Shown piece after piece: positions 1-20,811 of a stretch of DNA of 20,962 nucleotides. The position numbers were made by a program, and so were the translations under genes. The notes beneath the pieces were generated by a model, which worked only from the letters and a program-made list of their open reading frames with translations, was not told the origin of the DNA and did no database searches. The stretch spans positions 1 to 20,962 of the forward strand of contig JBIOXB010000227.1 of the NCBI GenBank assembly GCA_044869275.1, read 5' to 3'. Position 1 is the stretch's first letter. Every line of letters starts with the position of its first letter. Source of the DNA: a bacterium. Its GTDB lineage: Bacteria; Zhuqueibacterota; Zhuqueibacteria; Zhuqueibacterales; Zhuqueibacteraceae.

Positions 1-517
1 CGACTAGTGGATGATCTCGCCCTAACTGTTTTTCCAAAATCTCCAGGCTGCGGCGAAAGAGCGGCTCAGCGGCGGCATACTGGCCCTGAGCATGTAGTAA
101 TGCCGCCAGGTTATTCAAGCTGATTGCAGCATGGGGATGGTCTGGTCCAAGTTGCTTCTCTAGTATCTCCAGGCTGCGGCGATTGAGCGGCTCGGCGGCG
201 GCATACTGGCCCTGAGCGCGCAGCAATTCCGCCAGGTTGTTCAAGGCGGTTGCGACAGATAGATGATCCGGCCCAAGTTGTTTCTCTCGAATCTCCAGGC
301 TGCGGCGATAGAGCGGCTCGGCGGCGGCATACTGGGCCTGAGATTTCAGCAAGAGCGCCAGGTTGTTCAAATCTGTGGCCACTTCGGGATGTTCCGGTCC
401 ATAAGCTTTCTCATCAATCTCCAGGGCGCGCCGATAGAGCGGCTCGGCAGCGTTGTAGAGTGCACGACCCTCTAAATAAAAGCCCATGCGTACTAACAAC
501 AATGCAAGCTCAGTCGA
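1..517 (-). repeat. Tandem 126-bp (42-codon) TPR-coding repeats, at least 4 units, continuing beyond the window edge
   Basis: The core CTCCAGGCTGCGGCGA..GAGCGGCTC.GCGGCGGCATACTGG.CCTGAG recurs at 41, 167 and 293, with a more diverged copy at 419. The period is exactly 126 nt. Confidence 0.9.
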
Positions 518-2149
518 TTCGATTTTACTTTTTTCGGCGTGTTCTGCCACTGCATATGAATGTGGCAGCAATCGCGCACACTCTGGCCATGATCGAATGT
601 CAAAGGTGCCGTCGGGCCAGGCATGTACCACAGTTTTGAGAACCGCCTCCGCCCACATTTTCTGTTCGCCTTCTCCAAGCCGATCCAGTGTCACCGCCTG
701 CACCAAGCGATGCAGAGAAAGTGTCTTGACACTCGCCTCCACCAGCGAGAAGCGCGCCAGACTGGCAATGGCGCGGTTGGTCTCCAAGGGTTTCGACAGA
801 GCTTTGGAGAGTTGCTCGGGCAAGTGTTTGCGCCCGTCAATGAGCAGCGAGCGCGGAATGTTGTCCGGCGCGAGAAAGGATAGAGCATTGAGCAGGTCCA
901 CCGCTACTGGGTCTTCAGTCTTGAGCTTTTGAAAGGAAATTTCCCAGGTGGTGGCCACGGTGGCGTCATATTCCAGCGGTTGGTGTTCTTGCAGCAACGC
1001 CGCGCAATATTGTTGGAACAAGGTCAGATAGTCAGCAAGACTCACGCCCGTGGCTTCCACATAGGCGCTGGCTTGTTCCAAGGCCAGAGGCAAGTCGCCC
1101 AGAGCATTGGCCACGGCGTTTGCGGCCTGCTCGTCTTGAGCGCCACTGCGGCGCAGCAAAAAGGCGAGGGATTCAGCACGGGGCCACACCTGCACTTTGA
1201 GCGCTTGGGCCACGCCTTTCCACTGTGGATTGCGCGAGGTGATGAGCACTTGTCCGCTCACCGCTTGTGGCAAATAGGGCAACAAGTCCTGCGGTTGTTG
1301 GGCATTGTCAAAGATCAACAGCCAGCCATTGTGATGATCGAGCCATTGCCGCACCGCGTGAATGATGGCGGTTTGATCTTGCGCTTCCTTCTCGGGCAGC
1401 TCGAGTGCCGTCGCCAGCGCGGAAAAGTCTGTGGCCAGGGTGGCTGGTTCTTCCGCGCGCAGCCACCACACGATTTGAAACTCCGGGGCGAAGCGATAGG
1501 CATATTCCAGCGCCAACTGGGTCTTGCCCACTCCGCCCAGGCCGTGAATGGCTTGTGCTTGGGTGAGGGCTGCGGTTTTGTCCTTGGTCAAGGCTGCACG
1601 CAGCTCGGCGAGCAGCTCGGCCCGGCCGGTGAAGTTGGGGTTGCGGTGGAAGGGGATGTTCCAAACTGCCGGAAGCTCGCCGGAGATCTGAAAGCGCAGA
1701 AACCGCGCCAGTTGTTCCGCAGGTGTGGCGGGCATTTGCGCAACCGGCTTTTGCGCGGAAAGTACTGCCTCGCGTAGCTGTGCCATGCCCTGGCTGACAG
1801 AGCTGAAGTCGAGGTACAGAAGATTAGAGAGCAGTGCCGGAAGCTCGGTCTTGTCCATCCGGCAAGGGACAATCAACTTGCGGAGAGCAACGGCGCATGT
1901 CCATTCCAGCTCCACCCAATGCGACTGCGCCGCGTCGCGCGACCAAGCCAGCAGCACGGTATCGCACCACGCCAGTGCATCGCTGATCTCCTTGGGGAGC
2001 ACGTCACCGGCGCGCACTTCGGCATGGTCGACCCACACTTCGGCGCCGGCGGCCATCAACTCGGTTTCAAGCCGGCGCACCAATTCCTTGTCGGCCCAGG
2101 AATGGCTGATGAAGATTTTGGGGTGAACAGCAAGCTGCGGAGCGGTCAT
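1..2149 (-). CDS. TIR-NB-ARC-TPR STAND NTPase (bacterial NLR-like protein). The C-terminus runs off the window start; 716 codons are visible.
   Basis: Manual translation of the complement from ATG 2149-2147 stays open to position 2. There is no stop, so it is missing from the ORF track; the + ORFs at 250-2248 are its antisense shadows. The N-terminus MTAPQLAVHPKIFISHSWADKELV...SHWVELEW is TIR. NB-ARC motifs: P-loop GLGGVGKT (1520-1543), Walker B WLLIFDNA, VLITSRN, GDLPLALEQA, and MHD-like SLHRLVQAV. The C-terminus has 42-aa KLC-type TPRs (YAAAEPLYRRSLEI.EKQLGPDHP..A..LNNLA.LL.AQGQ). GGGGA lies 6 nt upstream of the ATG. Confidence 0.88.
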   Translation of the reverse strand, partial: MTAPQLAVHPKIFISHSWADKELVRRLETELMAAGAEVWVDHAEVRAGDVLPKEISDALAWCDTVLLAWSRDAAQSHWVELEWTCAVALRKLIVPCRMDKTELPALLSNLLYLDFSSVSQGMAQLREAVLSAQKPVAQMPATPAEQLARFLRFQISGELPAVWNIPFHRNPNFTGRAELLAELRAALTKDKTAALTQAQAIHGLGGVGKTQLALEYAYRFAPEFQIVWWLRAEEPATLATDFSALATALELPEKEAQDQTAIIHAVRQWLDHHNGWLLIFDNAQQPQDLLPYLPQAVSGQVLITSRNPQWKGVAQALKVQVWPRAESLAFLLRRSGAQDEQAANAVANALGDLPLALEQASAYVEATGVSLADYLTLFQQYCAALLQEHQPLEYDATVATTWEISFQKLKTEDPVAVDLLNALSFLAPDNIPRSLLIDGRKHLPEQLSKALSKPLETNRAIASLARFSLVEASVKTLSLHRLVQAVTLDRLGEGEQKMWAEAVLKTVVHAWPDGTFDIRSWPECARLLPHSYAVAEHAEKSKIESTELALLLVRMGFYLEGRALYNAAEPLYRRALEIDEKAYGPEHPEVATDLNNLALLLKSQAQYAAAEPLYRRSLEIREKQLGPDHLSVATALNNLAELLRAQGQYAAAEPLNRRSLEILEKQLGPDHPHAAISLNNLAALLHAQGQYAAAEPLFRRSLEILEKQLGRDHPLV
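860..1627 (-). other. NB-ARC (STAND ATPase) module of the NLR-like gene (aa ~175-430)
   Basis: Ordered motifs GLGGVGKT, LLIFDNA, LITSRN and GDLPLAL. The helical part that follows ends in LHRLVQ. Confidence 0.8.
1796..2119 (-). other. TIR domain-coding segment of the NLR-like gene (aa ~11-118)
   Basis: KIFISHSWADK start strand, AGAEVWVD, and the S-x-W-x3-E signature SHWVELE. Glu82 is encoded by the complement of 1904-1906, at the position of the catalytic Glu of NADase TIRs. Confidence 0.75.
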
Positions 2150-2156
2150 GGGGAGT

Positions 2157-2232
2157 CCCCAAAACAAAACCAAAATTCAAAGCCCAAAATCCAAAACCAT
2201 TTTTGGATTTTGGGTTTTGAATTTTGGGTTTC
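2157..2232. repeat. Family-A hairpin H1: inverted arrays of CAAAATC/CAAAGCC-type heptamers (about 30-bp AT-rich stem, 4-nt loop)
   Basis: AAACCAAAATTCAAAGCCCAAAATCCAAAA / CCAT / TTTTGGATTTTGGGTTTTGAATTTTGGGTT. It lies between the antitoxin stop (2259) and the NLR start (2149). Confidence 0.85.
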
Positions 2233-2258
2233 CGGATTGTCCAGGTAAGATCCCGGAT

Positions 2259-2555
2259 TTAAATTGCTCTTTGATTCAAAATTCTCAGTACCGTTTTAGG
2301 CTCCCTGGCCAGCATATTGAGCAAAACCAAAGCCGCTCCTTTAGGTTCTCGATCACCACGTTCCCAATGGCGCAGAGTGCCGAGGCCGATGCCAAATGCC
2401 GCAGCAAATTGCGGCTGTGTCATACTGATATTTCCGCGTATTCTCTTCACGTCAACCTCAAAAGGCTTGTACACTCGTACTTTAATTTTTCTTCCTTCAG
2501 CAAACGCAATCGCATCCTTAAGGCTTCTTTCGATTCGTTTGTAGGCTTGGCTCAT
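2259..2555 (-). CDS. XRE-family HTH antitoxin, HigA-2 / COG2944-like (98 aa)
   Basis: ORF-track protein. The C-terminal half, ISMTQPQFAAAFGIGLGTLRHWERGDREPKGAALVLLNMLAREP, has the HTH layout of HigA-2-type antitoxins (recalled from memory, not searched). Its ATG overlaps the stop of the upstream toxin remnant (ATGA). Confidence 0.75.
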   Translation of the reverse strand: MSQAYKRIERSLKDAIAFAEGRKIKVRVYKPFEVDVKRIRGNISMTQPQFAAAFGIGLGTLRHWERGDREPKGAALVLLNMLAREPKTVLRILNQRAI

Positions 2556-2695
2556 TGCTTTGCTCCATATGTTTTCACCAAGATTGACACCAACTTCGCC
2601 AATTTGTTTTGTTCCGCTTTGGAGAGATTTGCCTTTTCATTTTTTCCAAAGATATTCAACAAAAACGTAATCCATTGGATGAGCGAATACAAGAG
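2552..2695 (-). pseudogene. Decapitated HigB-2 / RelE-fold (COG4737-like) toxin remnant; only the C-terminal ~47 codons remain, with no start codon
   Basis: The frame is open only from the TAG at 2698-2696 down to the TGA at 2554-2552: LLYSLIQWITFLLNIFGKNEKANLSKAEQNKLAKLVSILVKTYGAKQ. The ..LLNIFGKNE..L...Q..L segment resembles the C-terminus of V. cholerae HigB-2 (..FYLLTIYGKNEMSDLNANQRKQL.., from memory). The N-terminal ~60 residues are absent. Confidence 0.5.
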
Positions 2696-2709
2696 CTATT
2701 TCAGAGAGC

Positions 2710-2805
2710 TTAGTCGACCGAGTATCCTGCTTCTTCCAGATGCCAGGCGATCCATTCTGCCCAGGTTTTGTCGGCTTTGTTGTAGCTGATGAAGAAATCA
2801 TTCAT
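2710..2805 (-). pseudogene. 31-codon N-terminal fragment of a second TIR-domain gene
   Basis: ATG at 2805-2803, then MNDFFISYNKADKTWAEWIAWHLEEAGYSVD, then TAA at 2712-2710. This is a canonical TIR beginning (FISY..D..WA.WI...LE.AGY.V), but a TIR domain needs more than 120 aa. It differs from the N-terminus of the NLR, so it is not a local duplicate. Confidence 0.55.
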
Positions 2806-2814
2806 TTTGAGCAA

Positions 2815-2884
2815 AGAAATCCAAAATCCAAAGCTCAAAATTCAAAACCACTTTTGGATTTTGTGTTTTGAACTTTGGGCTTCC
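2815..2884. repeat. Family-A hairpin H2 (imperfect)
   Basis: ATCCAAAATCCAAAGCTCAAAATTCAAAACCAC / TTTTGGATTTTGTGTTTTGAACTTTGGGC. It overlaps the last ~14 codons and the stop of the anti-sigma ORF. Confidence 0.8.
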
Positions 2885-4360: not shown

Positions 4361-5050
4361 CTACTTGCCGGTGCCATACTGTTGCAGGCAGGCGCGCAGG
4401 GCTTTTCTTGCTCTCTGCAATTGCTCCTTGACCGTATGCACCGCCACTTGCATTATTTTTGCGACCTCCTCCTGCGCATAGCCCTGCACACAAAACAGCC
4501 TCAACGTCTGCCGCATGCGCGGGGGCAGCCGCTCAATGCAGTCTTCCAGGCGCTGCAAGATCTGGTCGCGCTTCATGTCTTCGTCCGGGGAGAGTTGATC
4601 CGGCGCGGAGTCCGGCAAGGCTTCCGCCGCCGTGTCGTTCTGCACTCCTTCCCTTGCTTCAAATCTCCGGCGCCTTCTGCTTCTTCCGATGAAACGGCAC
4701 ATTTCATGATACGAAACCGCACGAAACCAGGAATCGAACTTCTCGGCTTCGGCGAGGGTGTCGAGATGGCTAAAGACCCGAATAAAGATTTCTTGCACGA
4801 CGTCGTCGCGATCGTGGTTGTTCATTCCGAAGCGGAAGGCCTGATAGTCCAATTTGGGGCTATAGTGGTCGTACAGGATTCGCCATTCCGGAAGTCGCTT
4901 GTAAGCGGTCTCCAGTTGTTCGCGGCGTGCGTGATCCGTCTCTGCTTTGATCTTTTCCCGCATTTCCTTGAGCGTACGGACCGCCTGCAAGACGCGGGAG
5001 CAAGGGCTTCCCACGCGCGTGGCTTGAACTGGTCCTGGTGTATGTTCCAT
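4361..5050 (-). CDS. ECF-type RNA polymerase sigma-70 family factor (229 aa from the preferred start)
   Basis: Region 2 is DDVVQEIFIRVFSHLDTL..FDSWFRAVSYHEMCRFI. Region 4 is LPPRMRQTLRLFCVQGYAQEEVAKIMQVAVHTVKEQLQRARKAL. I prefer ATG 5050, preceded by GGAGGTGGAG. The track start at 5122 lies inside repeat H3. Confidence 0.85.
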   Translation of the reverse strand: MEHTPGPVQATRVGSPCSRVLQAVRTLKEMREKIKAETDHARREQLETAYKRLPEWRILYDHYSPKLDYQAFRFGMNNHDRDDVVQEIFIRVFSHLDTLAEAEKFDSWFRAVSYHEMCRFIGRSRRRRRFEAREGVQNDTAAEALPDSAPDQLSPDEDMKRDQILQRLEDCIERLPPRMRQTLRLFCVQGYAQEEVAKIMQVAVHTVKEQLQRARKALRACLQQYGTGK

Positions 5051-5083
5051 CCGCTCCACCTCCGGAAGGAGAGAATTCAGAGG

Positions 5084-5214
5084 GCAAAGCACAAAATCCA
5101 AAGACCAAAATCCAAAGGCCAAAGCCCAAAATCCAAAAGGGAATTAATAACCTGGATACTGCTGATTGAGATCAATTTGGATTTTGGATTTTGAATTTTG
5201 AGTTTTGGTGTTTC
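5084..5214. repeat. Family-A hairpin H3: the longest copy, with about 7 heptamers per arm and a ~34-nt loop
   Basis: Left arm: CAAAATC CAAAGAC CAAAATC CAAAGGC CAAAGCC CAAAATC CAAAAGG. Right arm: TTTGGAT TTTGGAT TTTGAAT TTTGAGT TTTGGTG. Confidence 0.85.
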
Positions 5215-5901: not shown

Positions 5902-7035
5902 TCAGGCGACGAGCGCCGCTTTCACCCGCCGCACGCCTGCGCGGATCGTATCGAAGTCCGTCGCAAAGGAGAGCCGCAGGTAACCCTCTGCTTCCTCTCC
6001 AAACGCCGCGCCGGGGATGGTGATCACTTTATTTTGCAGCATGCGTTCCGCCACCTCGAGCGAAGCGCCAAATCGCGAAATTGCCAGCATCAAATAAAAA
6101 GCGCCGTCGGGAATGATGCGGTCGAGGTTTAAATCGGCAAATTGGGTGTCTAGCAATTCCACCAGAAAATCGCGGCGAGCGCGCAAGTCCTGCCGCAGCT
6201 CGGCGAGCGCGGCGCGGCCTTCTTCCGTGAATGCCGCCAGCGCGGCGCGTTGTGAGATGGCGGAGGCGCAAGTGGTGGCGTACTGGTGCAGAACAATCAG
6301 GTGACGCACGATTTCCGGATCGCCATAAATCCAGCCGAGGCGCCATCCCGTCATTGCGTGCGACTTCGACAAGCCCGAGATCACCACCGTGTGCGGATAA
6401 AAATCGCCAATCGCAGCAGGCCGCACGTCGAAATAAAGCTCGCGATAGACCTCATCCGCAATCACGAGAGCCGAAGAGCCCTGCAAAGCATTGGCGAGCG
6501 CTTTGAGATTTTCGGGCGTGAGCATACGGCCGGTGGGATTCGAGGGGCTGTTGATGATCACCGCGCGCGTGTTCGCAGTGAGGCGCTGCCGGAATTCTTC
6601 GGCATCAAACGCAAAGCCGTGCCGTGCCGGCAACTTGTAGAAGACGGGTTTACCGCCCGCCATTCGCACCAGCGCGGGATAAGCGACAAAGCCGGAGTCG
6701 GGCAAAAGCACGTCGTCGCCGGGATTGATCAACCCCATCAACGCAACGAAAAGTGCTTCTTGCGAGCCGTTGGTGACGCAGACGCCTTCAAATCTCGCGG
6801 CATCACCATAATCCGCGGCAATCGCGCGCCGGAGCTCGAGCAATCCGGCATTGGGGGTGTAGCGGATTTTTCCGGTATGGATGAAGCGCTGCGCTGCCGC
6901 ACGAATGGCGCCAGGCGTGGGAAAATCCGGCTCGCCCAAACCCAGATTGATCGCGTCCAATGGCGCACGATCAAAAATCTGCCGAATGACGGATTTCTCG
7001 ATTCCGGCCAGACGGGCAGCGGGCGTAAATTTCAT
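5902..7035 (-). CDS. Class I/II PLP-dependent aminotransferase; by context a candidate N-succinyl-diaminopimelate aminotransferase
   Basis: INLGLGEPDFPTP, TPNAGLLELR, and SGLSKSHAMTGWRLGW (PLP lysine motif). I prefer ATG 7035 (MKFTPAARL). The track start at 7065 is a TTG inside repeat H4. The family call is solid; the DapC role is inference from neighbours. Confidence 0.85.
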   Translation of the reverse strand: MKFTPAARLAGIEKSVIRQIFDRAPLDAINLGLGEPDFPTPGAIRAAAQRFIHTGKIRYTPNAGLLELRRAIAADYGDAARFEGVCVTNGSQEALFVALMGLINPGDDVLLPDSGFVAYPALVRMAGGKPVFYKLPARHGFAFDAEEFRQRLTANTRAVIINSPSNPTGRMLTPENLKALANALQGSSALVIADEVYRELYFDVRPAAIGDFYPHTVVISGLSKSHAMTGWRLGWIYGDPEIVRHLIVLHQYATTCASAISQRAALAAFTEEGRAALAELRQDLRARRDFLVELLDTQFADLNLDRIIPDGAFYLMLAISRFGASLEVAERMLQNKVITIPGAAFGEEAEGYLRLSFATDFDTIRAGVRRVKAALVA

Positions 7036-7056
7036 AGTAATGGATGGCCTATTATT

Positions 7057-7090
7057 AAAATCCAAAACTCAAAATTCAAAATCCAAAAAT
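7057..7090. repeat. Family-A hairpin H4, left arm (separated from its right arm by a 327-nt insert)
   Basis: AAAATCCAAAACTCAAAATTCAAAATCCAAAAAT. Confidence 0.75.
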
Positions 7091-7173
7091 ACAGAGGAAT
7101 TTTAGTCAGCAAATGGGGAGATGGGTTTTAAAAGAACTACTACTCTATCACCTTAATTGCTATACCCTCAATA

Positions 7174-7371
7174 GTGTCATCCCGCCTTGCGGGATCTTGG
7201 TTGAATCAAGCACTGTGCTTATGCCGCACAAGATTCAGACTGTGTGAAAACGCTTGGTTGCAACGCCGGCTGAGCTTGTCGAAGCCGGATTTTTGAACTT
7301 AGCACCCTTCGACAAGCTCAGGGTGCGGCCTACCCAAGTTTTCACACAGTCTGATTCCTTCTGAATGACAC
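7174..7371. mobile_element. Family-B MITE-like palindromic element, copy B1 (core 7232-7357)
   Basis: Terminal inverted repeats GATTCAGACTGTGTGAAAAC (7232-7251) and GTTTTCACACAGTCTGATTC (7338-7357). Central 15-bp perfect stem CTGAGCTTGTCGAAG / CTTCGACAAGCTCAG. Outer small hairpins GTGTCATCCCGCCTTGCGGGATC and GATTCCTTCTGAATGACAC. No ORF. Confidence 0.7.
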
Positions 7372-7417
7372 TTCGTAGTCAAGTGGCTAAAAGAACTATG
7401 ATGACAATGCAGTAGTC

Positions 7418-7446
7418 ATTTGGATTTTGAATTTTGTGCTTTGGAG
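7418..7446. repeat. Family-A hairpin H4, right arm
   Basis: ATTTGGATTTTGAATTTTGTGCTTTGGAG. It ends 2 nt before the dapD stop codon (7449-7451). Confidence 0.75.
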
Positions 7447-7448
7447 TT

Positions 7449-8282
7449 CTACCTCAGCTCTTCCTCGAGTCGAATCGCGCGATCGGTTTTCTCGTCACGA
7501 TATTTCACGATGATGGGCGTGTAAATCGCCAGGCCCAATTCCTTGCCCCGGCCCTGCGCGATGGGCCGCGTGCCGGGAATCACCACGGCGTTGGCGGGAA
7601 TCTCGAGCGGGCGCTCCGCGGTTTTGTGATGAATTTCATCTTTGACGAGATCATAAACCGGCGTTGCACCGGTGAGAATGACGCCGGCGCCGATGACGGC
7701 GCCTCGCCGCACGATTGTTCCTTCATAAATCCCGCAATTGCCGCCGACCAGCACCTCGTCTTCCACAATCACCGGCAGCGCGCCCACGGGCTCGAGCACG
7801 CCGCCGATTTGCGCGCCCGCGCTCAAATGCACGCGCTTGCCGATTTGCGCACACGAGCCGACCAGCGCGTGTGAATCGATCATGGTGCCGTCATCGACAT
7901 ACGCGCCGGCGTTGACATACATCGGCGGCATGCAGGTTACGCCCCGCCCCAAAAAACATCCATCGCGAATAGCAGAACCGCCGGGAACGATACGCACACC
8001 GTCATTGATGCGGATCGCTTTCAGCGGATAGGTGCTTTTGTCATAATAAATGAAATGCTCGTCGAGCGACATATCCTGCAGCGCGCCGATGCGAAACCCG
8101 AGCAGGAGGCCTTTTTTGACCCAGGCATGCACACGCCACTCCTCGCCGATTTTTTCTGCGGCGCGTACGCGACCGGCGTTGAGCTCAGTTTTCAGGGCAT
8201 TGAAAGCGGTGGAGTATTCGTCGCAGTACTTTTCTTGCGGCGGTTGGGCGAAGAGAGACTCGATTTGTTGCTGGAGGTTCAT
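7449..8282 (-). CDS. dapD: 2,3,4,5-tetrahydropyridine-2,6-dicarboxylate N-succinyltransferase
   Basis: The hexapeptide-repeat core [44 protein letters not shown] closely parallels E. coli DapD ([44 protein letters not shown]). I prefer ATG 8282 ([11 protein letters not shown]). The track start at 8306 is a TTG. Confidence 0.9.
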   Translation of the reverse strand: [277 protein letters not shown]

Positions 8283-8347
8283 TATCGTTTTCGTTGGAAA
8301 TGACAACTATCACTACAACGTTAAGTGGGCCGCCTTCTCCTCTGTTT

Positions 8348-8442
8348 GTCATTCCGGACGAATCAGACTGTGTGAAAACGCTTAGCTTCAACGCAGGCTG
8401 AACTTGTCGAAGCCTGATTTTTGAACTTAGCATCCTTCGACA
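8348..8442. mobile_element. Family-B element, copy B2, truncated (left ~60% only)
   Basis: GTCATTCCGGACGAATCAGACTGTGTGAAAACGCTTAGCTTCAACGCAGGCTGAACTTGTCGAAGCCTGATTTTTGAACTTAGCATCCTTCGACA. The right terminal repeat is missing. Confidence 0.7.
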
Positions 8443-8539
8443 GCGGTCACTCAGTCAATTGGAGCAGCCGCCTGCACGCAAAGCGTTAAACAGGCATTCC
8501 CACGCGGAGCGCGGGAACGAGGAACGTTAAGGAGGAAAT

Positions 8540-8771
8540 TTTTGAACGCGGATGACACGGATTGTGCTGATGAACACGGATAAAGCAAAAATCGAGTAAT
8601 TCGTCAGAGCATAATAATTCTGAGTCAAAATGAATAAATACCTTTTTCACGATCTTGGCTCAAATCATCTCGCCTCTATGCTTTGAGCCTTGGTGTTCAT
8701 TTGACGGGTACGAGCAGTAAAAATAAAAATCCGTGGCGATCCGTGTTATTCGCGTCATCCGTGTTCAAAAG
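8540..8771. repeat. Family-D element: about 42-nt imperfect inverted ends made of (G)ATGA(A/C)ACGGAT motifs around an AT-rich core
   Basis: Left end: TTTTGAACGCGGATGACACGGATTGTGCTGATGAACACGGAT. Right end: ATCCGTGGCGATCCGTGTTATTCGCGTCATCCGTGTTCAAAAG. The same CACGGAT motif builds the hairpin at 4047-4109. Confidence 0.6.
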
Positions 8772-8801
8772 ATTTTGCTTCAGCTGGCCTCCATCATATG
8801 C

Positions 8802-9698
8802 TCAAACGCGCACCAACCCCAGTTCCTTCATGGCGTGCCGCAGTTTGTTTTTATTGTCCTCGCTCATCGGCACTAACGGCAGGCGGTAGGATTCTTCGAT
8901 CAAGCCCATCATCGCCAAGCCGGCCTTGACCGGAATGGGGTTGGTCTCGATGAAGTTGAGTTTCATCAAGCTGTAAAGCTTGCGCTGGAGGTTACGCGCA
9001 TCCTGGTATTTTCCTGCGAAGCAGAGATGGGCCAAATCGGACATCATACGCGGCACTTGATTCGACACTACGGAAATCACGCCACAGCCGCCCAGCGCGA
9101 TAAGCGGCAGCGTAAGCGCATCGTCGCCGGAGAACAGCTTGAAATCGGGCGGAATTTTCATTGCCAATTCGGTGATTTGATTGATGTCGCCGCAAGCTTC
9201 TTTGATGCCGATGATATTGTCGATCGCGCTCAACTGCACCACGGTATCGGGCAGCAAATTGGTGGAAGTGCGGCCCGGCACGTTGTACAGAATAATGGGA
9301 AGCTTTACGCTTGCGGCCAGGGCGCGATAATGCTCCAGGAGCCCGGCCTGCGTGGGCTTGTTATAGTAGGGCGTGACTGAAAGTAAACCATCTACGCCGA
9401 GGCTGGCGATCCTTTGCGCCATCTCGATCACGTGCGCGGTGTTGTTGCCGCCCGCGCCGGCAATCACCGGCACGCGGCCACGGGCGTGCTGCACTACAAC
9501 TGCAACGACGCGCAGATGCTCGGCCATGCTCAGCGTGGCGCTTTCGCCGGTGGTGCCGCACGGCACGAGAAAATCAATGCCTTCGCGGATTTGAAAATCC
9601 ACCAACCGCTGTAGTGCCTCCTCGTCGACCTGGCCGCCAGCCTTGAACGGCGTAACCAGCGCCGTGCCGCAGCCTTGGAGGTTTTTGAGTTTGGTCAT
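8802..9698 (-). CDS. dapA: 4-hydroxy-tetrahydrodipicolinate synthase
   Basis: GTALVTPF, VPCGTTGESATLS, YNVPGRT, and IIGIKEA (Schiff-base lysine context). I prefer ATG 9698, preceded by GGAGAAAAAC. The upstream codons of the track ORF fall in a repeat region. Confidence 0.92.
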   Translation of the reverse strand: MTKLKNLQGCGTALVTPFKAGGQVDEEALQRLVDFQIREGIDFLVPCGTTGESATLSMAEHLRVVAVVVQHARGRVPVIAGAGGNNTAHVIEMAQRIASLGVDGLLSVTPYYNKPTQAGLLEHYRALAASVKLPIILYNVPGRTSTNLLPDTVVQLSAIDNIIGIKEACGDINQITELAMKIPPDFKLFSGDDALTLPLIALGGCGVISVVSNQVPRMMSDLAHLCFAGKYQDARNLQRKLYSLMKLNFIETNPIPVKAGLAMMGLIEESYRLPLVPMSEDNKNKLRHAMKELGLVRV

Positions 9699-9725
9699 GT
9701 TTTTCTCCATGAATGATTGCAAAAA

Positions 9726-9795
9726 GCATAGAGCAAAGCGCATGGCGCATGGCGATTTTCACCCACTCTCCCCGTCTCCCACTCTCCCCGTCTCC
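9726..9795. repeat. Heptamer array GCATAGA GCAAAGC GCATGGC GCATGGC, followed by a 16-nt tandem CACTCTCCCCGTCTCC x2
   Basis: Read directly: heptamers at 9726-9753 and 16-mers at 9764-9779 and 9780-9795. The heptamers are the reverse complement of the array at 10784-10832. Confidence 0.8.
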
Positions 9796-9799
9796 CTAT

Positions 9800-10495
9800 C
9801 TATGCCCTCCGCGCAATGATTTCCCGAAATTCATAAAACCCTTCGCGTCCGGCAATCCATTTTGCGGCGAACAGCGCACCTTCGGCAAAGCCTTCGCGAT
9901 TGCGGGCGGTGTGTTCAAGTCGAATGGTATCGACGGCGGAATCGAAACTCACCACGTGTGTTCCGGGAATGTGGCCGGCGCGCACGCTGGTCACCGGAAT
10001 TTGGCGTTCGCCGTAGGCATTCGCCAGAGAATTTTGCAGCACCAATGCGGTGCCGGAGGGTGCATCCTTCTTGAATTGATGATGCCTCTCTTCGACGAAA
10101 GGATCGTATTGCTCGAAGGCCGCGAAAACCTGCGAGGCGCGCTCCACAATTTCATAAAACAAATTGACGCCAATTGAAAAATTCGAACCATAAACCAAAC
10201 CGAGACCGCTGCTGGCGACGATTGCCCTTGCTTCTTCAAGTTGGTGATGCCAGCCGGTGGTGCCAACGACCAGATTGAGCGAAAGTGCGGCGGCAGCGCG
10301 AACATTGCCGAGCACAGCGTCGGGCACGGAAAAGTCGATGAGTGTCGGCGCCCCTGCCAGAGCCTGGCGGGTCGCTTGATCCGCGCGCAGAGGCTGCTCG
10401 CGGGTGAAGTGCGCGACCACCTCGCAGCCGTGGCGTGGCGCCAGAGCTGCGATCATGTGGCCCATTTTGCCGTAACCGAGAAGGGCGATTTTCAT
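9800..10495 (-). CDS. dapB: 4-hydroxy-tetrahydrodipicolinate reductase (short form, 231 aa)
   Basis: MKIALLGYGKMGH (nucleotide-binding loop) and EERHHQFKKDAPSGTA (canonical DapB E-x-HH-x2-K-x-DAPSGTA). ATG 10495 is preceded by AGGAGG. The 44 extra N-terminal codons of the track ORF translate MITE copy B3. Confidence 0.92.
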   Translation of the reverse strand: MKIALLGYGKMGHMIAALAPRHGCEVVAHFTREQPLRADQATRQALAGAPTLIDFSVPDAVLGNVRAAAALSLNLVVGTTGWHHQLEEARAIVASSGLGLVYGSNFSIGVNLFYEIVERASQVFAAFEQYDPFVEERHHQFKKDAPSGTALVLQNSLANAYGERQIPVTSVRAGHIPGTHVVSFDSAVDTIRLEHTARNREGFAEGALFAAKWIAGREGFYEFREIIARRA

Positions 10496-10511
10496 TTTTC
10501 GCCAGCCTCCT

Positions 10512-10661
10512 GTCATCCTGCAAGGACCAGACTGTGTGAAAACTCGGGAATGCCGCACCCTGAGCTTGTCGAAGGGTGCTAAGTTCAAAAATCCGGCTTC
10601 GACAAGCTCAGCCGGCGTTGAAACCAAGCGTTTTCACGCAGGCTGATTCTATCAGCATGAC
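10512..10661. mobile_element. Family-B MITE-like element, copy B3 (full length, inverted relative to B1)
   Basis: Ends: GTCATCCTGCAAGGACCAGACTGTGTGAAAAC ... GTTTTCACGCAGGCTGATTCTATCAGCATGAC. A central stretch of about 65 nt is identical to the reverse complement of B1. Confidence 0.75.
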
Positions 10662-10783
10662 ATTATGATACTGTTGCTACTCATATGATGCCGCGCTGCT
10701 GAAAATCCTCCACAACGATTGCGGATGACATCATCTCGCCATGGGAGAAAACCTTGCCTCGGCAGAGCGTGACGTCCGATTTG

Positions 10784-10832
10784 CCATGCCCTTTGCGCCA
10801 TGCTCTATGCGCTATGCCCTATGCGCTATGCA
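10784..10832. repeat. Heptamer tandem array, 7 units, consensus C(C/T)ATGC(G/C)
   Basis: CCATGCC CTTTGCG CCATGCT CTATGCG CTATGCC CTATGCG CTATGCA, ending 16 nt below the asd stop codon (10849-10851). Confidence 0.8.
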
Positions 10833-10848
10833 CGCTGATCGCTGCGCA

Positions 10849-11901
10849 TTAAATTCTCCCCTGCGCCGCCAGCAGCTCCGCATTCAGAAGCGAGGCGCCG
10901 GCCGCGCCGCGAATCGTATTGTGGCCCAAAATCACCATGCGATAATCCAAAATCGGGCAAGGGCGAATGCGGCCAACGAGCGTGGCCATGCCGTTGGCAA
11001 ACATCACGTCACGCTTGGGCTGTGGCCGGTCGTTTTCTTCCATCACCAAAACCGGCTGCGGCGGAGCGGAGGGCAGTTGCAGTTCTTGCGGCAAGCCGCG
11101 AAAACTCTGCAGTCGCTCTTTGATCGCAGCGACAGAGGCCGGCATCTTGAGCTTGACCGACAGGCATTCGGTGTGGCCGTTTTCCACCGGCACGCGATTG
11201 GTTTGCGCACTGACGAGGAAGTCCGCCAGCTCCACTCTGCCGTCGACTAAACGGCCCAAAATTTTTCGCGTCTCGATCTCCATTTTTTCTTCTTCGCCGC
11301 CGATGAACGGGATCACGTTGCCCAGAATATCCAGCGACGGCACACCGGGATAGCCGGCGCCGGAGACCGCCTGCAACGTGACCACAAAGACTTTTTCCAC
11401 CTCAAAAGCCCGGTGCAACGGCCCCAAAGCCATCGCCAGAAACATGGTCGAGCAATTCGAATTGGTGACGATGAATCCCGGCCAGCCGCGTTTTCGTTTT
11501 TGCGATTCGATCAGGGTAAGATGATCGGCGTTCAGCTCCGGAATGACGAGCGGCACATCGCCGGCGAGGCGATGATTGCGCGCGTTGCTAAAAACCGCAT
11601 ACCCGGCAGCGGCAAATTCGGCCTCCACCTCGCCGGCCACGGCGGCATCCAGGCCGGAGAAAACGATGCGGCAGTCCAGCTCCGGGCGGCAGGGCTTGAC
11701 GGTGAGGCGGCGCGTGCTTTCCGGCAGCGGCCTGCTTTGCAGCCAGCGCACGGCTTCGCCATAGGTTTTGCCCGCGGAACGTTCCGAAGCAGCCACTTCG
11801 GTTAAATCGAACCAGGGGTGGTTTTCGAGCAATTGCACGAACCTCTGGCCGACGGCGCCGGTCGCGCCCAGCACACCGGCCTTGATTTTCTCATTCTTCA
11901 T
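10849..11901 (-). CDS. asd: Aspartate-semialdehyde dehydrogenase
   Basis: [13 protein letters not shown] (NAD(P) loop) and [16 protein letters not shown] (active-site Cys). I prefer ATG 11901 ([12 protein letters not shown]), 38 nt below the lysC stop. Confidence 0.92.
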
Positions 11902-11939
11902 GCGATCGTTTGAGCCCTCGGGTGAGATTGAAAATGCGC

Positions 11940-13349
11940 CTACTCGAACACGTGCTTCCATTGCGCCGCGTAGGCAAAAAATTCATCGTGCAGGCATTTG
12001 ACGGCGGCGGCAATTTGCACTTCATCGATCACGAACGTGAGATTGATTTCCGAGCCGCCGTGCGAGATAAGCTCGACCTCAACGCCGGCGCGTTCGAGCG
12101 CGGCGAACACGCGCGCCGGTTTCAGATTTTCGCCCACCACGCAGCAGACTGCCCTGCCGTGCTGAACCCGCACCTCCGCAAACTGGCTGAGTGCAGCCAG
12201 GAGGGGCTCGAGATGGTCGGCATTGTCGATCGTCAACGAAACACTGACTTCCGAAGTGGCGATGACGTCGATGCTCTTCTGATGTTGCGCAAACACTTCG
12301 AACAGACGCGCCAAAAATCCGTGTGCCATGAGCATGCGCGTACTCTGCACCGTGATCGTGGTGATGTGTTCCTTATAAGCGATCGACTTGACGATGCCCG
12401 GCGCCGGCCGGGCGGCGGTGTTCGTGATGAGCGTGCCCTCGCCCTCCGGCCGCCTGGAGTTCAACACGCGCACCGGAATGTTCTTTTGGATCGCCGGCAA
12501 TATGGTGCTCGGATGCAAAACTTTGGCGCCAAAATACGCCAGCTCAGCCGCTTCGTTGAAGGTCATCTGTTTGATGCGTCGCGCTTCCGGCAACAAGGAA
12601 GGGTCGGCGCTGAGCACGCCGTCCACATCGGTCCAGATCTGAATCTCGCTCACCTCGAGCGCAGCGCCGAAGAGAGCGGCAGAATAATCTGAGCCGCCGC
12701 GTCCGATGGTGGTGGTCATGCCGTTCTCCGTGGCGCCAATGAATCCTTGCGTGATCACGATCGTGCCCTTTTGCAGCAGCGGCAGAAAGGCCTCTTTGGC
12801 TTTGGCGTAAGTGCGATCAATCAAAGGCGCCGCCCGTGTGAATTCCGTGCCCGTCACCAATACCTTGCGGGCATCCACCAGACTGGCGGCCACTCCGCGT
12901 TGCAGCAGCTCGTGGCTGAGCAAAAGTGAGGACCACTGTTCTCCAAAGGCCGCAAATTGGTCGAGCGTGCGCGGCGTCAATTCTTGCAGCACGCCCAGGC
13001 TTTGCACGAGTTTTTCCAGCTCCAGACAATCTTGTGTGATCCGGTCTTTCACCAATGCCAGGGCGTGCTCAATGCTGCGAGACTTTCCTTGCTGCGGGCC
13101 TGTTTCCGCAAAAAGCCCCTCGGCAATGGTGCAATGGCGGTCCCGCAGCTTCGCAATCAAAGCCATGGCTTCCGGCACGCGGCTCGCTGCGCCCTTTTTC
13201 GCGAGGTCGAGCAAGGCGTTGGTCACACCCGCGCCGGCAGAAACAACCACCAATGGGGTATGCGCTTGCTCGCGCAAAATGATATCGGCGGCATTGCGCA
13301 GCGCGGCGGCGTCTTGCACCGAAGTGCCGCCGAATTTCATGACGATCAT
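11940..13349 (-). CDS. lysC: Aspartate kinase (monofunctional, LysC-type, 469 aa)
   Basis: [38 protein letters not shown] parallels the N-terminus of E. coli LysC. There are C-terminal ACT-like repeats. AGGAAAG lies upstream of ATG 13349. Confidence 0.92.
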
Positions 13350-13388
13350 TTTTTGACTTTCCTAATCCTTTCAACTAAGCTTGAAATG

Positions 13389-14378
13389 TCAAGTCAATAG
13401 CTCTTCCGCAATCCCGAAATACAGATCAACCGCGCGCGCCAGTTCAGATTTGGCAATGCGCTCATGCGGAGTGTGCGCATCGAGAATCGAGCCGGGGCCG
13501 AAAAGCAGCGGCCGGCCCCACTGCGGGAGCAGCGGAATGTCGGTGGTAAATGCCACGATCGTGGTTTCGAAGCCCGGCAACTCCGCCATCATCACCGGTT
13601 CGCAGGCGAACTGGTAATGAATCTCCGCGCGGCCTCGCACCGTTTGCGCGAGCGTGTCTTTGATCACGCCGGCGGCGGTGACGGTTCTGAACATCAATTC
13701 GGCTTTGGCAAAATCCGGAATGACGTTGGCTTGCCCCCCGCCGGCAATCGTGCCTATGTTGCAGGTCGTTTCGCCGAGCACGGGATGCGCCGGCAGAGCA
13801 AGCGCGCGAATGTCGCTGAGCACTTCCAGCAGCTTCACAATGGCGGATTCACCCTGGTGCGGATAGGCCGAATGCGCGGCCCGTCCGTGCGCCACGATTT
13901 CCGCGCGCAGCGCGCCTTTGGAGCCGAGCGCCAGTTTGTTTTCCGTGGGTTCGCCATTGATCAAAAAGCGGCATTGATTCGGAATGGTATTGGCGGCAGT
14001 TGCGCCCTCGCTGCCATGCTCTTCTCCAACGACAAACAGCAGGCCAAAGTTTCTCACGCCCGCGAGGCGCAGCCTTTCCGCAGCTTTGACTTGCGCCGCG
14101 AGGATGCCTTTGGCGTCGCACGCGCCGCGGCCATACATGAACGCTTCGTCCTGATGAAAAGGCAATAGCGGCAGGACCGTGTCGGTATGTGTGGACATCA
14201 CCACCAGAGGCTCGCCCACGCGCGCAAAAATATTGGCGCGCCCGCGCGTGACTTCCTGCAATTGCACTTCGAAGCCCGCGGTCTCGAGATAATCGTGCAG
14301 GAAAGCGACGACAGCCTGTTCCTCCCCGGTGGGCGAAGGGATCTGGATCAGCGCCGCGGTGAGATCAAATATTTCCAT
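13389..14378 (-). CDS. M20-family metallohydrolase (ArgE/DapE/LysK type); probably succinyl-diaminopimelate desuccinylase by context
   Basis: Metal and catalytic motifs STHTDTV, GRGACDAKG and VVGEEHGSEG, plus a lid domain (SKGALRAEIVAHGRAAHSAYP). The DapE role is inferred from the neighbouring dapD, lysC and asd. Confidence 0.8.
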   Translation of the reverse strand: MEIFDLTAALIQIPSPTGEEQAVVAFLHDYLETAGFEVQLQEVTRGRANIFARVGEPLVVMSTHTDTVLPLLPFHQDEAFMYGRGACDAKGILAAQVKAAERLRLAGVRNFGLLFVVGEEHGSEGATAANTIPNQCRFLINGEPTENKLALGSKGALRAEIVAHGRAAHSAYPHQGESAIVKLLEVLSDIRALALPAHPVLGETTCNIGTIAGGGQANVIPDFAKAELMFRTVTAAGVIKDTLAQTVRGRAEIHYQFACEPVMMAELPGFETTIVAFTTDIPLLPQWGRPLLFGPGSILDAHTPHERIAKSELARAVDLYFGIAEELLT

Positions 14379-19422: not shown

Positions 19423-19686
19423 CGTGCGCTCCTCTCCACAGGATGAGAAACCATTCGGCATCATGACCGCGGTGCAGGCCGCGCGAACCCAAAGATCGCA
19501 ATCGCTCTGCACCATCATAAGCCAATGATAGGCCATTAAAGAAGGGAATTTTTAGTTCATTCGCAACCCTTGTCTTCACGGCCACGGCGGCAACGGGCCG
19601 TCAATCAGCTTGATATTGTCATTTTTTATCTGATTCATGCGAAGTTGTGTTTCCAAAGCACCCATACCAATACGCACGGAGGAGCC

Positions 19687-20811
<1,125 letters not shown>

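Follow-up and report, generated by a model that had tools for sequence, protein, structure and literature searches.

An edge-truncated TIR-NB-ARC-TPR gene in a Zhuqueibacteraceae contig: a candidate stand-alone immune sensor from a large prokaryotic family

A TIR-NB-ARC-TPR gene at the edge of the window

The window analysed here is a stretch of 20,962 nucleotides (contig JBIOXB010000227.1, assembly GCA_044869275.1) from a bacterium of the family Zhuqueibacteraceae. Its left edge cuts a gene that encodes, in order, a TIR domain, an NB-ARC-type STAND NTPase and an array of tetratricopeptide repeats (TPRs) (Table 1). Translation of the window gave no stop in 716 codons on the complement of 2149 to 2. 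An earlier note on this DNA had described this frame and its absence from the program-made list of open reading frames (ORFs), and both were reproduced; the gene is missing there because ORFs running off the source sequence are not listed. The frame is too long for chance. Homologs aligned over 98–100% of the visible part without frameshifts, and over that part the gene is real and looks intact. An exact 41-nt scan of metagenome contigs for the missing end gave no match. The closest scored homolog, P0001, is 860 residues long and carries seven TPR units plus a capping helix. From homolog lengths, the missing 3′ part probably encodes roughly 140–230 residues, or ~3–5 TPR units and the capping helix.

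Table 1. Features of the window and of the homolog loci (L numbers) named in the text. Positions refer to the window unless a locus is given. ECF, extracytoplasmic function; HTH, helix-turn-helix; KLC, kinesin light chain; MITE, miniature inverted-repeat transposable element; NBD, nucleotide-binding domain; REP, repetitive extragenic palindrome; TM, transmembrane.
Feature	Position	Strand	Basis or description
TIR-NB-ARC-TPR gene, 5′ part	2–2149	−	716 codons; ATG at 2149–2147; 3′ end past the window's left edge
TIR domain (residues 12–124), AbTIR/PdTIR-like HWVELEW subtype	1778–2116	−	Pfam TIR_2, phmmer against PDB, model
Putative catalytic Glu82 codon	1904–1906	−	Alignment to AbTIR/BtTIR Glu
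STAND NTPase module (residues ~199–500: NBD, helical domain, winged helix/DUF7779)	650–1555	−	Pfam, motifs, model, profile
Helical linker and KLC-type TPR array (residues ~519–716)	2–595	−	Pfam, 126-bp DNA repeat, model
REP-like palindrome between HTH stop codon and TIR gene start	~2165–2235		Hairpin, U-rich tract on minus strand
98-residue HTH_3 protein, NadS/MqsA antitoxin type	2259–2555	−	HTH_3 above cutoff; NadS and MqsA-antitoxin models below
46-residue ORF, read as toxin remnant	2552–2692	−	Last ~31 residues against C-terminus of L127 RelE-like toxin
42-residue ORF, first ~27 TIR residues, majority DFFISY...AEWIAW subtype	2710–2838	−	TIR_2, E = 1.4e-9, model positions 1–27
Second palindrome	~2821–2878		REP-like
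REP/MITE-like elements	2170–2227, 2821–2878, 5091–5208, 7055–7088, 7418–7437		Heptamer-like units CCAAAAT/CCAAAAC...
ECF sigma ORF	4361–5122	−	TTG start within REP-like element
Lysine/diaminopimelate cluster	5902–14378	−	See text
ORF taken as spurious	2148–2789	+	No family match; overlaps genes/repeats
ORF taken as spurious	4382–5194	+	Antisense to ECF sigma; no family match; overlaps genes/repeats
ORF taken as spurious	19576–20640	−	No family match; overlaps genes/repeats
DUF3800 genes	L081 8126–8845, 9203–9871; L083 7134–7853; L166 9203–9871
RelE-like/HTH pair	L127 7340–7976	+
HWVELEW TIR + Lcl_C (DUF1566)	L128 7980–9026; L018 9992–11083; L141 8001–8963
HWVELEW TIR + ~350-residue region	L127 7989–9476; L116 4584–6116		TM helix, Ig-like/CarboxypepD_reg-like matches
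Ga0247727 loci with relatives of the gene or its TIR head	L085–L090, L099, L106, L114–L116, L123, L127, L128, L135, L138, L141, L147, L149, L152

The TIR domain has a glutamate at the catalytic position

The Pfam model TIR_2 matched the N-terminus with 85 bits against a cutoff of 28 (E = 7e-24). When residues 1–146 were compared with all PDB chains using phmmer, matches were obtained to PdTIR (3h16, E = 1e-7), BtTIR (7uxr), AbTIR (7uwg and 8g83) and Cat1. The motif SHWVELE lies at residues 76–82, and the phmmer alignments placed W78-V-E-L-E82 against WTNYE of AbTIR and WTEYE of BtTIR. By index arithmetic, the aligned glutamate in the 137-residue chain 7uwg_A is E208, given a construct that we take to comprise AbTIR residues 134–267 and a three-residue tag. 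E208 is the catalytic glutamate of AbTIR, a solved NADase (PMC10022894).

Glu82 was kept in 94 of 121 aligned sequences, with 10 rows gapped at that position, and scored at least 90% conserved in a catalytic-position test on the homolog alignment. Residues F13, S15, E82 and W83 were invariant or at least 90% conserved, as determined from a MAFFT alignment with 120 homologs and from a 65-row alignment, A1. An AlphaFold2 model showed the beta-alpha secondary structure of a TIR domain. The domain thus combines a TIR fold with a glutamate at the conserved catalytic position, where the earlier note had placed Glu82. By analogy with solved NADases, the TIR head is predicted to cleave NAD in a Glu82-dependent manner.

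The central module is an NB-ARC-type STAND NTPase

Pfam matches in the central module were to AAA_22 (residues 200–285) and DUF7779 (residues 410–494), the latter being the winged-helix region of such NTPases. All motifs that the earlier note had listed, SHWVELE included, were present where it had put them and were conserved in 65–121 sequences. Those of the NTPase are GLGGVGKT (203–210), LLIFDNA (277–283), ITSRN (303–307), GDLPLAL (351–357) and LHRLVQ (479–484). They correspond to Walker A (G203–T210, with K209), Walker B (L277–D281), sensor-1 (T304–R306), GxP (L353–A356) and an MHD-like site at H480, and the NB-ARC signatures present include an RNBS-B-like TSR at sensor-1 and a GLPL-like GxP. 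In the two alignments named above, G203, G205, G206, G208, K209, D281, T304, R306, L353–A356 and H480 were invariant or at least 90% conserved. The invariance of K209, D281, R306, L353–A356 and H480, together with an Apaf-1/NLR-like fold of NBD, helical domain and winged-helix domain, places the module among the NB-ARC/AP-ATPases.

Among the profile models that the earlier note had proposed as a check, TIR_2 and TPR_10/TPR_12 were significant, but NB-ARC itself (PF00931) scored 22.0 bits, below its cutoff of 23.5. Many homologs carry a precomputed PF00931 match. In a sequence search with the nucleotide-binding oligomerisation domain (NOD) alone, the closest solved relative was AfsR, a transcription regulator.

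The TPR array is regular and varies in copy number

Matches to TPR_12 and TPR_10 began at about residue 536 (E = 8e-50 and 1e-40, respectively), with four TPR_10 stretches, and TPR_NPHP3 scored 122 bits against a cutoff of 100. The DNA of this region is itself a tandem repeat, with a period of 126 bp, 3.3 copies and 79% matches. Units of 42 residues begin at residues 560, 602, 644 and 686; three are full and the fourth is cut by the window edge, and the KLC-type 42-residue TPRs described in the earlier note were thereby borne out. A motif-based count gave 3 to 9 repeats in nine close homologs. Units were compared across the window protein and P0001–P0010, homologs that are 67–78% identical to it. 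Variability was focused on unit positions 1, 20, 30 and 40, at ~3 bits each, the units being otherwise near-identical. The change in unit number and the focused variability suggest repeat turnover, as in the TPR arrays of fungal NLR (nucleotide-binding, leucine-rich-repeat-like) proteins.

Fold and profile relatives

The AlphaFold2 model, built on A1, had a mean predicted local distance difference test score (pLDDT) of 88 and a predicted template modelling score (pTM) of 0.83. Foldseek comparison of the model with the PDB gave matches to the STAND-TPR protein 6mfv, the tetramer core of RPP1 TIR and NB-ARC (7dfv), Apaf-1, CED-4, NRC2/3/4 and ZAR1, and the repeats matched kinesin light chain TPRs at 36–47% identity. 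No Avs structure was found among the top 50 structural matches, which we count as a difference from Avs. A profile of the family matched the KLC TPR (E = 1e-76), the AfsR NOD (E = 9e-21) and the TPR structures 4y6c and 4y6w (about E = 1e-30). The PDB labels 4y6c as a Podospora anserina putative kinesin light chain; we take both structures to derive from fungal NLR TPRs. Profile positions 4–360 were collinear, in one stretch, with Roq1 residues 11–391, covering TIR and NBD (E = 3e-14).

Pfam, model and profile therefore agree on the order of TIR, NB-ARC-type NOD and KLC-type TPR that the earlier note had read from the sequence. The likeness to plant TIR-NB-ARC-leucine-rich-repeat receptors (TNLs) that it had drawn is also real, since Roq1 is matched by the profile and RPP1 by the model. 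Given the matches to Roq1, RPP1 and KLC, a plant-TNL-like TIR-NB-ARC protein with KLC-type TPRs is an accurate description.

The gene belongs to a large family that has already been described

Homologs were sought in a set of 5.8 billion proteins, from which 8000 candidates were scored. At least 6077 of these had E ≤ 1e-10, and most of the top 120 carried TIR_2. The best scored homologs were 78%, 72% and 69% identical, with lengths of 860, 943 and 939 residues; P0001 was 78% identical to the window protein by BLASTP and 82% in A1. Relatives were seen in Chlorobiaceae, Methanothrix, Methanofollis, cyanobacteria, Acidobacteriota, Verrucomicrobiota and others. In genome and metagenome collections, scans guided by the protein retrieved relatives of no more than 74% identity, and not the contig of origin.

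By its curated cutoff, the NCBIfam equivalog model NF040586, ‘FxSxx-COOH system tetratricopeptide repeat protein’ (FxsT), includes the window protein (432.9 bits against 300, E = 3e-129). The match ran over residues 168–714 on model positions 3–553 of 830, where the window edge ended it. Some homologs, P0069 and P0110 among them, are given the FxSxx-COOH name by their sources, P0069 by NCBI itself. From actinobacteria, Kaur et al. (2020) described an AP-ATPase with an N-terminal TIR that is encoded on the downstream side of FxSxx-type peptide-processing systems, and TIR-NB-TPR proteins of bacteria and fungi, with NB-domain similarity to the plant TIR-NB-ARC-TPR proteins (TNPs), were described by Johanndrees et al. 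(2022, PMC9806590). The gene is a further member of a large, already described and modelled family, and not a new kind of system.

TIR heads are interchangeable on a common chassis

Domain-wise comparison in A1 showed that P0001–P0009 were 66–91% identical to the window protein in the TIR and 69–88% in the NOD. In P0043 and P0054, the NOD was 68–70% identical but the TIR only 22–25%, whereas in P0002–P0009, with equally close NODs, TIR identity stayed at 66–77%. The majority TIR subtype on the chassis is DFFISY...PEW; the HWVELEW subtype of the window is a minority, 20–28% identical to the majority. These comparisons indicate that TIR heads have been swapped, with two subtypes on one NB-ARC-TPR chassis.

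Heads of the HWVELEW subtype, 43–74% identical to that of the window, were also found on other bodies. They are joined to Lcl_C at some loci and to a region of ~350 residues at others (Table 1), and L135, L138, L149 and L152 resemble the Lcl_C fusions by sequence. Such fusions to non-NB-ARC bodies are single-chain architectures in which the TIR is combined with an alternative sensor. A single JGI metagenome, Ga0247727, held ~20 distinct loci with relatives of the gene or its TIR head, which points to a large paralog and ortholog diversity in one community. Head swapping, paralog richness and repeat variation are typical of effector-sensor conflict proteins. Fungal NLRs whose repeats are closely alike within one protein, the group to which the 4y6c and 4y6w matches lead, typically show the same modularity and repeat variation.

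No conserved partner in seven homolog contexts

Gene neighbourhoods were compared for seven homologs (L081, L082, L083, L084, L165, L166 and L167) with 44–72% identity to the window protein. None of the seven contained a conserved HTH neighbour, a gene for a ThsA-like, SLOG, Macro, SIR2 or other receptor- or effector-like protein, or a radical-SAM/SPASM, HExxH or small precursor gene. A ThsB-type TIR with a linked effector, as in Thoeris, was likewise found neither on the visible side of the window nor in the seven contexts. The single-gene organisation proposed in the earlier note is consistent with these data, as no conserved partner was seen in any context. The lack of a partner is in keeping with a system of one protein that depletes NAD, and less so with one that signals to a linked effector.

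Three close relatives were syntenic, with an S8 peptidase, an FAA hydrolase, a hypothetical gene, SpoIID and a variable stretch followed by the TIR-NB-ARC-TPR gene. The neighbours of P0069 are thiC, an ABC transporter and dsrE. In three of the seven contexts, the TIR-NB-ARC-TPR gene is directly preceded by a DUF3800 gene; the window has none. The copy in L081 matched the PADLOC candidate PDC-M04A weakly (E = 7e-7), and DUF3800 may be a recurrent neighbour of TIR-NB-ARC-TPR genes.

Decayed remnants and repeats lie upstream

The region upstream of the gene holds a small HTH protein, two short ORFs and REP-like palindromes (Table 1). The palindrome next to the start codon folds with a ΔG of −49 kcal/mol (z = −6.4), is followed by the U-rich tract and scores as terminator-like. 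Homologs of the HTH protein were found in L127 and L141. In L127, an intact 108-residue RelE-like ORF (PF06296, E = 1e-4, below cutoff) precedes the HTH homolog, which in turn lies 12 bp upstream of a TIR-headed gene of different build. In L127 the homolog thus comes second in an intact RelE-like/HTH pair, and we accordingly take the window HTH to be the antitoxin left over from a decayed RelE-like toxin-antitoxin (TA) pair.

The 46-residue ORF gave no match by BLASTP or Pfam. Its Smith-Waterman score against the L127 toxin, however, was 48 compared with 23 ± 4 for shuffled sequences, of which 1 in 2000 reached 48, and we regard it with moderate confidence as a RelE-like toxin remnant. The broken TA module proposed in the earlier note is supported by this alignment and by the intact L127 pair. 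An upstream XRE-type HTH protein was also correctly described, but its suggested role as a regulator of the TIR gene was not supported: the L127 HTH belongs to a TA pair, no other locus shows the linkage, and a terminator-like hairpin intervenes. A TA pair adjoining an HWVELEW TIR head was seen twice, in the window and in L127, and could reflect either linkage or coincidence.

The second TIR fragment of the earlier note, covering only the start of the domain model, proved real. In tblastn, full-length TIR-NB-ARC-TPR genes in L099, L093, L002, L001 and L084 matched it at their N-termini with 65–81% identity. It resembles the stump of another TIR-headed gene that a deletion has fused to the 3′ end of the toxin gene. 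The dense repeats were likewise confirmed, as a REP/MITE-like pattern, CCAAAATCCAAAA, had 27 matches at up to two mismatches against 1.06 expected, nearly all of them intergenic. The element was absent from all 164 related loci compared, which come from other organisms, and by this comparison it marks the present genome.

The wider window

Beyond the remnants lie genes for an anti-sigma factor (zf-HC2 and TPR), an ECF sigma factor, the lysine/diaminopimelate (DAP) operon, a Cox-type cluster, YggT and a DegT aminotransferase. The Cox-type genes form a molybdoenzyme cluster of CoxS/L/M/G type. The lysine cluster comprises genes for a class I/II aminotransferase, a DapD-type succinyltransferase, DapA, DapB, Asd, LysC (with ACT domains) and a DapE-like M20 peptidase, and REP-like elements occupy two of its intergenic gaps. 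The ECF sigma ORF has the N-terminus MAFGFWSLDF..., but the sigma-70 region 2 match starts only at residue 83, and the true start is probably further downstream. Three further ORFs were taken as spurious (Table 1).

Discussion

We read the gene, with moderate confidence, as encoding a stand-alone, single-chain STAND sensor of the NB-ARC/AP-ATPase type, with a TIR NADase head and a role in conflict or immunity. The open frame, domain order, conserved catalytic and switch residues, fold, solitary genomic setting and reuse of the TIR head are observed; TPR-based sensing of a ligand, assembly into oligomers, cleavage of NAD and a part in immunity are proposed by analogy with the biochemistry of TNLs, Avs, AbTIR and ZmTNP-IIa. 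At rest, the NOD would hold ADP, with contributions from His480, Lys209 and Arg306, and the TPR array would help to keep the protein monomeric. A ligand, most plausibly a protein of a phage or another invader, or else a short peptide motif, would bind on the KLC-type TPR superhelix, release autoinhibition and allow ADP to be exchanged for ATP. The NOD would then oligomerise, as in plant TNL resistosomes and Avs tetramers, and join the TIRs in composite active sites around Glu82. NAD+ would be cleaved, and its depletion would lead to cell arrest or death (abortive infection).

Several observations weigh against this. The defence or accessory islet proposed in the earlier note was not borne out, as the decayed remnants span only ~700 bp and the remaining ~18 kb is mainly housekeeping. 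Apart from one generic TPR match, PADLOC recognised the protein only at the TIR level (Aga TIR, SAVED-TIR and a weak ThsB). At E ≤ 0.01 it was matched by none of the Avs and bNACHT models of PADLOC-DB v2, and Pfam NACHT gave no match either. The neighbours of the homologs show almost no known-defence signal: scanned with PADLOC, the neighbours in the window and in the homolog loci gave just two matches, both weak, to an MNT-type nucleotidyltransferase and to a DUF3800 candidate. Within the gene, Walker B carries DN instead of DD/DE, and the 3′ end falls outside the window. The start codon comes directly after the terminator-like REP hairpin, and a promoter scan, covering the sigma-70 consensus only, found no sigma-70-like promoter. 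Finally, a full-text literature search turned up no experiment that defines a trigger or a phenotype for bacterial proteins of this clade. This last result upholds a limited part of the novelty claimed in the earlier note; the architecture itself, however, is abundant, modelled and was described in 2020 and 2022.

Plant TNPs (formerly XTNX) have the same TIR-NBARC-TPR order as the window protein, and the maize member ZmTNP-IIa causes cell death that requires the catalytic Glu (PMC9806590; bioRxiv 2026.05.20.726525). Similarity between bacterial proteins and plant TNPs is, however, confined to the NB domain, and TNP TIRs group apart from bacterial TIRs (Johanndrees et al., PMC9806590). The plant TNLs Roq1 and RPP1 are collinear with the window family over TIR and NB-ARC, but the host here is a prokaryote. 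Plant TNLs carry leucine-rich repeats and signal through EDS1. Fungal NB-ARC-TPR NLRs and animal NPHP3 share the chassis of NOD and KLC-type 42-residue TPRs, and the fungal proteins also show near-identical repeats, few variable positions and copy-number change. Their heads differ (HET, others or none), their roles are allorecognition in fungi and cilia for NPHP3, and none is bacterial.

Among prokaryotic systems, Avs (AVAST, Avs1–24) follow the same single-gene logic of an N-terminal effector, sometimes a TIR, a STAND NTPase and a C-terminal TPR-like sensor. They cause cell death on trigger binding, and TPR-sensor STANDs bind phage proteins directly (PMC13581612). Lee et al. (2026) recognised 589 STAND clades, AP-ATPases included, with triggers defined for Avs7–21. 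The NOD of the window protein falls in the NB-ARC/AP-ATPase clade, a difference from Avs, and the protein matched no Avs model in PADLOC. Characterised Avs sensors are also large, irregular, bilobed and target-enveloping, a further point against the proposed analogy; the array here is short, regular and KLC-type, and the mode of sensing may for that reason differ. A single-gene TIR-NLR of Escherichia coli protects against phage (Rousset et al. 2022, PMC9122126). This Rst_TIR-NLR, from P4-like satellites, is likened to the window protein by architecture only; it sits in a satellite hotspot, and the window protein has no full-length PADLOC match of that kind.

It is unlikely, in our view, that the protein serves a purpose other than antiviral defence, such as self/non-self (kin) recognition or a developmental cell-death switch in the manner of fungal HET/NB-ARC/TPR NLRs, or an AfsR- or NPHP3-like scaffold or regulator with an adaptor TIR. 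Such a role would suit the AfsR-like NOD and the matches of the TPRs to NPHP3 and P. anserina NLR-type models. Conserved repeats with hypervariable positions and changing copy number also recall fungal allorecognition NLRs, the chromosomal context is one of housekeeping genes, with three relatives syntenic after SpoIID, and Kaur et al. tie such systems to multicellular habits. However, Pfam identified no DNA-binding domain, and the catalytic Glu is present in nearly all TIR-bearing homologs, which indicates an enzyme rather than an adaptor. The conflict-protein hallmarks of head swapping and paralog richness argue in the same direction.

A role of the TIR as signal generator, whereby a cyclic ADP-ribose (cADPR) isomer would activate an unlinked effector as in Thoeris or plant TNLs, seems quite improbable. 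The TIR is closest in sequence to AbTIR, BtTIR and PdTIR, its W-x3-E subtype resembles AbTIR, a producer of 2′cADPR (PMC10022894), and weak ThsB-type matches were obtained. Yet no receptor gene of the ThsA-like, SLOG, Macro, SIR2 or other kind adjoins the gene in the seven contexts, TIRs fused to STAND NTPases, such as Avs TIRs, are treated in the field as NAD-depleting effectors (bioRxiv 2025.12.03.692087), and AbTIR itself depletes NAD+ when active (PMC10022894).

The family name offers another explanation, namely that the protein is the FxsT of an FxSxx-COOH system, whose TPRs sense an endogenous peptide that a metallopeptidase processes and a radical-SAM enzyme modifies, with the precursor and enzyme genes nearby or elsewhere. 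The window protein shares domain order, motifs and an above-cutoff NF040586 score (433 bits against 300) with FxsT proteins and with the TIR AP-ATPases that Kaur et al. placed downstream of such systems in actinobacteria; P0069 and P0110 bear the name, and the downstream side of the gene is outside the window. We nevertheless give this explanation little credence. FxSxx-COOH systems have linked genes for an FxsA precursor and for an FxsB radical-SAM/SPASM protein or HExxH peptidase, but no gene for such a protein or for a small precursor was found in the 19 kb upstream or in the seven homolog loci. P0069, despite its name, has ThiC as its sole radical-SAM neighbour. NF040586 covers only the NOD and TPR chassis and so detects the chassis, not the system, and the family reaches Chlorobiaceae, Methanothrix and cyanobacteria, far beyond actinobacteria. 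Least probable of all is that the window copy is a decaying or silent relic in a small gene graveyard, as the truncated TIR gene, truncated toxin and REP insertions immediately upstream, the hairpin abutting the start codon, the lack of a recognised sigma-70-like promoter and the 3′ end beyond the window might suggest; against this, the frame stays open through all 716 codons and keeps each of its functional motifs, homologs align over nearly all of the visible part without frameshifts, and the promoter scan was for the sigma-70 consensus only.

The stand-alone sensor that we favour could be taken a step further. The family might be a separate branch of prokaryotic immunity, either ancestral to plant TNPs and fungal NB-ARC-TPR NLRs or their sister group, that diversifies a reshufflable TPR repertoire for short peptide motifs. 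We consider this doubtful and put it forward tentatively, on account of the changing copy number, the four variable positions in each unit, the exchange of TIR heads and the abundance of paralogs within a community. If true, it would represent a mode of sensing distinct from the fixed, target-enveloping domains of Avs. It would be misleading to take the NCBI name ‘FxSxx-COOH system TPR protein’ as evidence of a peptide-modification system. As the family is very large and has no experimentally defined trigger, the gene could be used to test what regular KLC-type TPR arrays sense. If the proposed mechanism holds, it would be one more case in which plant-type TIR-NLR immunity has bacterial roots.

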